64,000 nt of DNA from Candidatus Pacearchaeota archaeon (GCA_018304105.1 JAGVWX010000020.1:97494-161493), one strand, 5' to 3'. Counted from the first letter of the stretch, positions 29,301 to 29,926 are shown. Numbers and translations are program-made. Notes: a model not told the origin generated them from the sequence alone.

Positions 29301-29570
29301 ATGAGACTTACTCCGATTGGCGAACGCGTGGTCTTGAAGCAGACTGCGAAAGAAGAACGAACAAGGTCAGGAATTTACCTTCCGAAATCAGAAGATAAAA
29401 AAGAAGGAATTATAGTAGAAGTCGGAACATTAAAAGACGGCTCATTAATTCCGTTAAGAAAAGGCGACAAAGTTATTTACGGCGGCTACTCAAGCGAGGA
29501 ATACGAAGTCAACGGAGAAAAGCTTTTAATAGTTGACTTCAAAGATATTTTAGCAAAGATTGAAGGATAA
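29301..29570 (+). CDS. groES: co-chaperonin GroES
   Basis: 89 aa with PIGERVVLK...SGIYLP...GDKVIYGGY. Confidence 0.95.
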   Translation: MRLTPIGERVVLKQTAKEERTRSGIYLPKSEDKKEGIIVEVGTLKDGSLIPLRKGDKVIYGGYSSEEYEVNGEKLLIVDFKDILAKIEG

Positions 29571-29926
29571 CATGGCAGAAGCAATAAGAACAACAAACAC
29601 ACAACCCGAACAAAAGTATAAGGTAACTAGAAAAGGAAACCCTCTTTACATTCCAATTTCAGAATTTCAGGCAGGAGATATCGTAAGAATTGCTTATCCG
29701 CCTGTTGGAGCTATGCGGCTTACAGAAAATCCCAGAGATAAACTTATAGGCAGAAGTATGCCTAAAGGATTTAGCAGAAATATGGGGACCACGCAATCAT
29801 TTCCAATAAGTCATCTTAGGCCAGATGAAAACGGGGACATAACGGACATTACTTGTCCTTCTTCAAGAGCAGGCTACATGTTAACTTATTTGGACAGGAT
29901 GCCAAATCTAGTATAACATGGCAAAA
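29567..29926 (+). repeat. direct repeat of the groES/groEL junction (ATAACATGGCA, 13/14 with the following bases)
   Basis: ATAACATGGCAGAA at 29567-29580 and ATAACATGGCAAAA at 29913-29926. Period 346 nt. Confidence 0.85.
29572..29916 (+). CDS. orphan 114-aa ORF inserted between groES and groEL
   Basis: The ATG at 29572 sits one base after the groES stop. Its own stop sits one base before the groEL ATG. No family recognised. Confidence 0.5.

Follow-up and report, generated by a model that had tools for sequence, protein, structure and literature searches.

What is a third gene doing between groES and groEL? Few two-gene units in prokaryotes are as conserved as the groES-groEL pair, and in Candidatus Pacearchaeota archaeon, a tiny groundwater archaeon, an open reading frame (ORF) that we call X sits between the two genes. 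X occupies 345 nucleotides (nt), positions 29572-29916 on the plus strand of a 64,000-nt stretch of DNA (GCA_018304105.1, JAGVWX010000020.1:97494-161493), to which we refer as the window and whose positions are counted from its first letter. It encodes 114 amino acids (aa; 12.8 kDa, isoelectric point 9.5). The original prediction, made from the sequence of the window, described X as an orphan flanked by a duplicated junction and attributed its position to a recurrent insertion mechanism. Our analysis leads to a different view. It is most likely that X is neither a recent nor a mobile insertion, and that it has been inherited within one clade of Pacearchaeota/Woesearchaeota (DPANN). Our overall reading, which we hold tentatively and with slightly less than even confidence, is that X is a real, vertically inherited resident third cistron of a groES-X-groEL operon and a lineage-specific chaperonin accessory, and that the repeat at its borders is a later copy.

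The locus

The first cistron, groES (29301-29570, plus strand), encodes the Cpn10 co-chaperonin of 89 aa (Pfam PF00166, full length, E=1.4e-20), and the third, groEL (29918-31531, plus strand), encodes the group I chaperonin Cpn60 of 537 aa (PF00118, also full length, E=4.5e-81). The two are adjacent and co-directional as in any groESL operon, but they do not form an uninterrupted bicistron, since X intervenes. groES ends with GAAGGA TAA at 29570, followed by a single C and the start of X (ATG GCA GAA) at 29572; X ends with CTAGTA TAA at 29916, again followed by a single C, and groEL begins with ATG GCA AAA at 29918. The genes around the three cistrons are archaeal in kind (a fused Rpb1-type rpoA, an Rpb2-type rpoB and EF-2).

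The product of X has been deposited as a hypothetical protein (MBS3077809.1, J4233_06120). We read exactly the same protein on 24 contigs of independent assemblies (the index lists 78 blocks), and its neighbours are identical in all of them, which excludes an assembly artefact as the source of the gene order. One 1-kb ENA scaffold departs from this order (L001, 1-1000): it is 100% identical to window positions 29155-29700 and then continues in frame into an RmlD-like C-terminus, giving an apparent X-RmlD fusion of 173 aa (P0002). As a single outlier against 24 contigs of normal order, it is probably a chimeric assembly and we treat it as such. There is also a 1,005-nt JGI contig (L002) with 99.4% identity to window positions 29480-30317, whose tips (1-69 and 908-1005) are unrelated to the window and look like chimeric contig ends.

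X has homologues, all of them between groES and groEL

X does not deserve the label of an orphan. A word-indexed search returned near-identical copies only. An exhaustive HMMER scan of 1.84 billion representative proteins found five further clusters (P0003-P0007) with 31-44% identity and lengths of 106-114 aa, and a profile search of a 5.8-billion-protein set added one more (P0008). Every one of these homologues is encoded directly between Cpn10 and Cpn60 on Pacearchaeota/Woesearchaeota contigs. The wider neighbourhood is kept as well, with a P-type ATPase gene upstream (joined by a PolX-type polymerase gene in some loci) and genes for a DsbA-like protein, L21e, Rpb4, DUF655, S13, S4 and S11 downstream. 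The original prediction was to fall if homologues turned out to be standard groESL-operon members in the lineage that donated the operon. This is nearly what we found; the members come, however, from the same archaeal clade and not from a bacterial donor. We found no relatives of X in viral contigs or among the JGI metagenome contigs scanned, and no second copy elsewhere in the window. No family was assigned to X by Pfam (no match at E<=1), PHROGs, NCBIfam or the sequences in the PDB.

To place X among its relatives we compared groESL loci, as the original prediction had proposed, taking one genome per species and the best 80 species representatives by groEL. All 80 are archaeal: Nanoarchaeota/Woesearchaeota/Pacearchaeota metagenome-assembled genomes (MAGs) with 63-88% identity, followed by Methanosarcinales with 61-65%, and no bacterial groEL is among them. 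The expectation that groES and groEL are normally adjacent proved correct, as about 34 of some 41 DPANN loci and all Methanosarcinales have no ORF in this slot. The gap is 3-60 nt in most relatives, while Methanosarcinales often, and a few DPANN loci, have a non-coding spacer of 110-220 nt. X therefore truly interrupts the usual bicistron. Seven of the approximately 41 DPANN loci (L016, L017, L021, L023, L025, L029 and L035) carry a translationally coupled ORF of 107-143 aa between the two genes, which makes about 17% of groES-groEL junctions occupied.

On a groEL tree (neighbour-joining, without support values; L029 was too short and was left out), the loci with X group with L016, L017 and L023 in a single clade, every member of which has a slot ORF. 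L021/L025 and L035 lie outside this clade, beside relatives without an ORF. Relatives at 83-90% GroEL identity to the window all carry a slot ORF, and empty sites appear only at 80% or below (L018-L020).

Are all occupants of the slot the same gene? In L016 the ORF is a divergent form of X (p<0.001 with a hidden Markov model (HMM); its identity to P0006 is 36% over 50 aa). For the L021/L025 and L017 ORFs, and for an additional ORF of 126 aa that we call Y, similarity to the X profile is weak but above controls (empirical p 0.003-0.025), and the L029, L035 and L023 ORFs give no signal. Y lies between X and groEL in L003-L006 (in L003 at 5410-5790), apparently also in the incomplete L007, and it shares with X the motif SLKAGDIIL (empirical p=0.025 against the X profile). 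The slot of L023 (339-912) holds two ORFs of 112 and 82 aa, whose similarity to X is undetectable. When slot ORFs were compared by hhalign, only a short shared motif, L-x-x-L-x-x-GD-I-V-x-I, was supported. A single origin of all groES-groEL slot ORFs is therefore clear for L016 only, suggestive for L021/L025, L017 and Y, and without any indication for L029, L035 and L023, so that we abandoned it as a general statement.

X as a protein-coding gene

X evolves fast. Its amino acids change about seven times faster than those of groES and groEL (dN, the rate of nonsynonymous change, is 0.53-0.86 against 0.06-0.19), and the ratio of nonsynonymous to synonymous rates (dN/dS) is 0.33-0.53 in deep pairs, in which synonymous sites are saturated, compared with 0.02-0.08 for groEL. 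Despite this divergence all family members have kept an open frame of 106-114 aa. Eight residues are invariant (Y16, R20, D36, P43, E52, P78, G88 and T105) and several motifs are conserved (Y-[KR]-V-x-R, GD-x-V-x-I, PP-x-G, R-I-P and PDE-x-G). Frame, length and particular residues are hence conserved across diverged lineages, as one expects of a functional protein-coding gene.

The structure prediction that had been suggested points in the same direction. The AlphaFold2 model of X has an all-beta core at residues 15-92 with a predicted local distance difference test score (pLDDT) of about 80-90 (71.7 overall) and disordered tails; an independent run with P0003 gave the same eight-strand all-beta topology (pLDDT 74.7), also with disordered tails, each from an alignment of only 6-7 sequences. 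No signal peptide or transmembrane segment is evident in X, whose core is predicted to be a soluble beta domain. Foldseek found no significant match in the PDB for either model (best E 0.44 for X and 1.1 for P0003). A fold search of BFVD gave as its best match an unnamed protein at E=0.06, and nothing in PDB or BFVD was below that value. The top non-significant matches of X were small beta-barrels: a PRC-barrel (3htr, and the PRC domains of A. fulgidus CdpB), KOW and Tudor folds. The best of them, 3htr, has E=0.44 and TM scores are 0.35-0.41; the matches were not reproduced with the P0003 model, and X has no Pfam match to PRC or KOW. Judged by these models, X would encode a small basic all-beta protein of a new family.

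An alternative is that the peptide has little or no function, and that selection has kept an ancient non-coding insertion between two coupled genes as an open frame with coupled ends, since it would be tolerated only where ribosomes can cross it and restart at groEL. Both ends of X are indeed tightly coupled to their neighbours and there is no Shine-Dalgarno-like sequence 5' of groEL. Slot ORFs are only 20-31% identical where GroEL is 83-88% identical, dN/dS reaches 0.74 in the closest pair (L009/L096), indicating weak constraint, and the slot ORFs of L029, L035 and L023 are similar in length but unrelated in sequence. On the other side, eight invariant residues and the motifs have survived saturated synonymous divergence, a confidently predicted fold is reproducible in two members, and Methanosarcinales tolerate non-coding spacers of 110-220 nt without any bridging ORF. 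We find such a bridge quite unlikely.

It is still less probable, indeed extremely so, that X arose by duplication of groES, as a second co-chaperonin, or of the 5' end of groEL, and has diverged strongly since. The case for it consists of a short x-GD-x-V motif common to X (QAGDIVRI) and GroES (RKGDKVIY), the predicted all-beta character that X would share with Cpn10, first five codons like those of groEL, and very weak matches to the 'GroES-like' domains of alcohol dehydrogenases. However, when the X family was compared by hhalign with an alignment of up to 63 GroES sequences, the probability was 0.5%, with only 9 columns aligned. There is no Cpn10 profile match, no Cpn10 structure appears in the top 50 Foldseek PDB matches of either model, BLASTP and BLASTN of X against groES and groEL returned nothing, and no similarity to groEL extends past codon 5. 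X as a GroES paralogue was rejected on these grounds.

The junction repeat

The duplicated junction that drew attention to X is real. ATAACATGGCA, an 11-nt sequence, is found at 29567 and, identically, 346 nt further on at 29913, and at no other place in the window; if the bases that follow are included, 13/14 agree. A repeat search extends it to 24 nt with 83% identity (20/24). Copy 1, AGGATAACATGGCAGAAGCAATAA (29564-29587, plus strand), covers the groES stop codon, one spacer base and the start of X with its first five codons; copy 2, AGTATAACATGGCAAAACAAATAA (29910-29933, plus strand), covers the X stop codon, one spacer base and the start of groEL with its first five codons. This is why X begins with MAEAI and GroEL with MAKQI.

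Does the similarity exceed what a coupling consensus would produce? The core TAA-N-ATGGC occurs at five plus-strand sites of the window, four of them among its 18 close co-directional junctions. About 1% of coupled-junction pairs share an exact in-register run of 11 nt or more, and a near-identical ATAAAATGGCA stands at two non-adjacent genes of L096, thus the exact 11-mer alone lies within background and is weak evidence. The 24-nt similarity is another matter. In a survey with a fixed 24-nt frame (5,709 within-locus pairs of ATG starts from 140 sources), the X/groEL pair with its 20/24 is the single highest, and so its similarity does exceed the consensus. All 282 non-adjacent coupled pairs stay below 18/24, and the sole other adjacent coupled pair to reach it is a slot ORF with groEL in L021 (19/24), independent of X. 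The longest in-register run of the survey, 21 nt exact across the start codon (ATTGAAGAATTAATGATCGAC), belongs to two nearby genes of a Methanosarcina MAG (L082, 71-361 and 605-1540) and probably reflects a local duplication.

If the repeat is not accidental, is it the scar of an insertion? According to the original prediction X would be a cassette delivered by a recurrent target-duplicating mechanism, with the repeat of 11-24 nt as its trace. Several observations agree with this. The junction similarity is above background, and long in-register runs are enriched in adjacent coupled pairs (3/39 against 2/293). Slot ORFs in L021 and L025 also start like groEL: in L021 there is an exact repeat of 15 nt and the ORF starts MAKQ, in L025 12/13 positions agree from the ATG and the ORF starts MAEQK, and L024, their neighbour on the groEL tree, has an empty slot. 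The L021/L025 clade thus presents a groEL-like slot-ORF start independently of X. Finally, another junction of the window, between rpoB and rpoA, holds a small ORF within a perfect repeat, to which we return below.

For X itself, the comparison with its own family speaks against a scar. Resident X predates the split of lineages at 83-90% GroEL identity, and a junction duplication is missing from all other X-family loci that we examined (L003, L008, L009, L096, L010, L015 and L016); they have other types of junction, with 4-nt overlaps or spacers of 2 or 9 nt. The X of the window is alone in having a seven-residue N-terminal extension, MAEAIRT, where others start 5-9 residues before the conserved Tyr, and by parsimony this extension is derived. 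Hence the repeat is not the scar of the arrival of X. Because the window is nested inside the X clade, the simplest explanation is that the groEL-like start was acquired later and in one lineage: the start of groEL was probably copied onto the start of X, by a short duplication or by gene conversion, and the copy was possibly kept since it provides the same context for re-initiation. Relatives without the ORF have GAAGGATAAaATGGCAAAACAA at their groES-to-groEL junction, and copy 1 in the window resembles this ancestral form.

Transposable elements, gene cassettes and phage 'morons' are the known insertions to which X could be compared. The direct junction repeat on both sides of X is of their kind, as are the patchy occurrence of slot ORFs among relatives and the pair of filled and empty sites at the rpoB-rpoA junction of the same genome. 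Unlike them, X has no inverted repeats at its boundaries, no second copy and no foreign composition (its GC content equals that of the flanks). No transposase, integrase, nuclease or recombinase domain was found in it with Pfam, PHROGs and NCBIfam. It is an old gene with vertical inheritance, and orthologous loci lack the repeat. A flanking repeat beyond chance is therefore present, but mobility machinery and several genomic contexts are not. With viral-contig relatives and homology among intercalated ORFs or slots lacking too, we rejected X as a mobile element and consider the insertion-scar explanation very improbable.

Expression of the operon

A putative promoter with a transcription factor B recognition element and a TATA-like box (BRE/TATA-like), CAGTAACTTTTATAAAT, lies at 29264-29280 on the plus strand and ends 21 nt 5' of the groES ATG. 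The motif (c)AGTAAA-TTTTATAAA is found at the same distance 5' of groES in the X-clade loci L009, L096, L003, L016, L010, L017, L015 and L023, and there is no comparable element 5' of X or of groEL. In archaeal promoters the TATA box is centred about 26 nt upstream of the transcription start site. With this standard geometry, transcription should start at or beside the groES ATG. The conserved promoter would drive all three genes, and the transcript would be one tricistronic groES-X-groEL mRNA, leaderless or near-leaderless.

Translation of the three cistrons appears to be linked as well. The stop-to-start spacing is 1 nt at both junctions (TAA-C-ATG). A Shine-Dalgarno-like GAAGGA, formed by the last codons of groES, now precedes X, and there is no Shine-Dalgarno-like purine run 5' of groEL. 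Ribosomes that terminate one base upstream would start on X, and likewise on groEL, at the stop-N-ATG arrangement. Since both starts stand one base past an upstream stop, X should be produced in parallel with GroEL, and ribosomes that pass through X are probably needed for groEL to be translated. In its two genes, their order, their strand and the single upstream promoter, the locus is like the canonical groES-groEL bicistron, including that of Methanosarcina; it differs in the conserved cistron of 106-114 aa, of a new family, that is coupled to both genes.

Possible function of X

GroEL/ES have been reported in Woesearchaeota and Pacearchaeota (PMC8204110), and an archaeal group I chaperonin is that of Methanosarcina (Figueiredo et al. 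2004, as cited in PMC8204110). In the literature that we searched we found no description of a third gene in a groES-groEL operon. In our opinion X would be an accessory of the group I chaperonin: a partner, an adaptor, or a dedicated client that is made together with GroES and GroEL. The argument for a chaperonin-linked role consists of two points, exclusive membership of this operon and translational coupling.

A weak lead comes from the disordered C-terminal tail of X, in which a motif R-x-G-Y-M-[LF]-T resembles the R-S-G-I-Y-L-P segment of the GroES mobile loop of the window, the segment that contacts GroEL.

Alternative partners of GroEL dock through a flexible hydrophobic loop, as do the GroES mobile loop and phage T4 gp31. 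X resembles such proteins in being small, in its predicted all-beta fold and in its place beside the chaperonin genes, and in three members of the family the tail motif G-[YI]-[MY]-[LF]-[TP] is similar to the GroES loop SGIYLP. It differs in having neither sequence nor fold similarity to Cpn10, and the motif is degenerate in the other five of the eight members.

Indeed, that the motif is intact in 3/8 members is one of several points which weigh against our reading. The GroES mobile loop (EERTRSGIYLPK) is conserved in relatives with or without X, and the GroES loops and GroEL C-tails of lineages that carry X are no different from those of lineages that lack it. Of nine clade-specific GroEL substitutions, six are located in the apical domain; this domain, however, also accounts for 42% of all variable columns, thus the enrichment is not significant. 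The weak constraint in the closest pair, the few sequences behind the models and the absence of support values on the groEL tree belong here too. Finally, small ORFs also sit between rpoB and rpoA and in the S13/S4 region, hence the position of X may reflect a favourable context for expression instead of a shared function.

Small genes at other junctions of core operons

The last point deserves a closer look, since the original prediction had claimed the same architecture for the rpoB-rpoA junction. In the window, rpoB (11301-14555) and rpoA (7600-11037), both on the minus strand, are separated by an ORF of 94 aa (MBS3077791.1, J4233_06020; 11027-11311, minus strand). Each of its junctions is an 11-nt overlap, ATGAGCAATAG, within a perfect 15-nt repeat, AATATGAGCAATAGA, at 11300-11314 and 11026-11040. 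Being bounded by this direct repeat, the ORF starts with MSNR like rpoA and ends with YEQ and a stop like rpoB. We scanned 80 loci of rpoA relatives and compared the rpoB-rpoA junction in 76 of them (L099-L178). The closest relative, L099 (94% rpoA identity), has an empty site with a single junction, AAATATGAGCAGTAAATAT (L099 1990-2020), and its alignment with the window has one precise 274-nt gap bounded by the 15-nt repeat. The window and L099 are a clean pair of filled and empty sites, which is compatible with a gain in the window and with a loss in L099. The rpoB-rpoA case is thus real, and the claim of a recurrent architecture is right in part.

Small coupled ORFs are common between rpoB and rpoA, being found in 32 of the 76 relatives (about 42%), with gaps of 120-596 nt that hold one or two ORFs of 42-150 aa; in the other 44 the two genes overlap or are nearly adjacent. 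The occupants belong to at least three families, with many singletons, and include a family with two transmembrane segments and Cys-rich proteins. The family of the 94-aa ORF comprises 11 loci, and its homologues in L107, L106 and L141 have 32-44% identity and are in the same slot. A member of this family in L132 scores 21.7 bits with DUF5678 (PF18929) against a cut-off of 23.2 (E=1.8e-4), and the 94-aa ORF of the window has no match to it.

How much of a recurrent mechanism remains? Coupled junctions are recurrently occupied, sometimes with a duplication; for X, however, the repeat is not an insertion scar, and there is no single mobile family. Across 32 filled rpoB-rpoA slots (31 relatives and the window), the junctions are as similar as in the cross-locus null, and the window is the one exception. 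Junction duplication is therefore not general for intercalated ORFs, and we discarded it as a feature of slot ORFs, which is a further argument against reading the repeat of X as a scar. There is no homology between the occupants of the groES-groEL and rpoB-rpoA slots, the families being slot-specific, and none among X, the 94-aa ORF and the other small ORFs of the window, which is why a single mobile family must be dismissed.

These other small ORFs are five ORFs of 96-134 aa (35318-35614, 36017-36346, 36352-36672, 37229-37633 and 38217-38507) among the genes for L21e, Rpb4, DUF655, S13 and S4. They match no Pfam family and have no homologue in the syntenic loci L009, L010 and L096, where other ORFs or none are found.

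Because so many small ORFs occupy the junctions of core operons, two of the alternatives stay alive. One is the translational bridge discussed above. The other, which we regard as somewhat unlikely but as a serious competitor, is that X is a real protein whose role has nothing to do with the chaperonin (for example at the cell surface of an episymbiont or in interaction with its host), and which is kept where it is for strong, stress-inducible and coupled expression, comparable to a phage 'moron'. In agreement with this, unrelated small ORFs occupy other core-operon junctions (32/76 between rpoB and rpoA, and those among L21e, Rpb4, DUF655, S13 and S4 that lack homologues in syntenic relatives), the evolution of X is as fast as is typical of interaction or arms-race proteins, and no co-variation of GroES or GroEL with X was seen. 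Against it stands the strict slot-specificity of the family, for which no other context was found in 1.84 billion representatives; a generally useful protein is expected to have paralogues. Also against it, neither a signal peptide nor a transmembrane segment is evident, and the predicted beta domain is soluble. We still prefer to see X as a chaperonin accessory.

A broader proposition would join these observations, and we offer it as a rather unlikely speculation. Coupled junctions of core operons (groES-groEL, rpoB-rpoA and those of ribosomal-protein genes) might be sites where small genes are born or land. The junction would be duplicated together with the first downstream codons, so that the newcomer takes over the restart site and the second copy re-couples the downstream gene. 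Most newcomers would be lost through recombination between the repeats and some would be fixed; X would be one of the latter, a new chaperonin subunit or adaptor of Pacearchaeota/Woesearchaeota that docks by a GroES-loop-like tail.

Other observations in the window

Two ribosomal proteins in the region of the small ORFs, S13 (193 aa, 37635-38216) and S11 (189 aa, 39049-39618), have N-terminal extensions of about 41 and about 70 residues before the Pfam domain. An ORF of 872 aa between the RNA polymerase cluster and a ribonucleotide reductase gene (16890-19508, minus strand) has no Pfam match at E<=0.001. A scan of the 64-kb window with Rfam returned tRNAs only and no other structured RNA around X. 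One of the tRNA matches is 131 nt long (51527-51657, minus strand; 43.9 bits) and was not reported by ARAGORN; it is probably an intron-containing archaeal tRNA.

Implications

In DPANN archaea, which run a bacterial-type group I chaperonin beside archaeal machinery, X, a conserved, coupled and fast-evolving third cistron, is a concrete candidate for a new partner of this chaperonin. In genomes as small as these, essential operons often have short genes at their junctions, either lineage-specific or quick to turn over. How new genes enter essential operons and survive there, and what part translational coupling has in it, can now be tested by comparing the presence and absence of such genes together with the junctions at which they sit.

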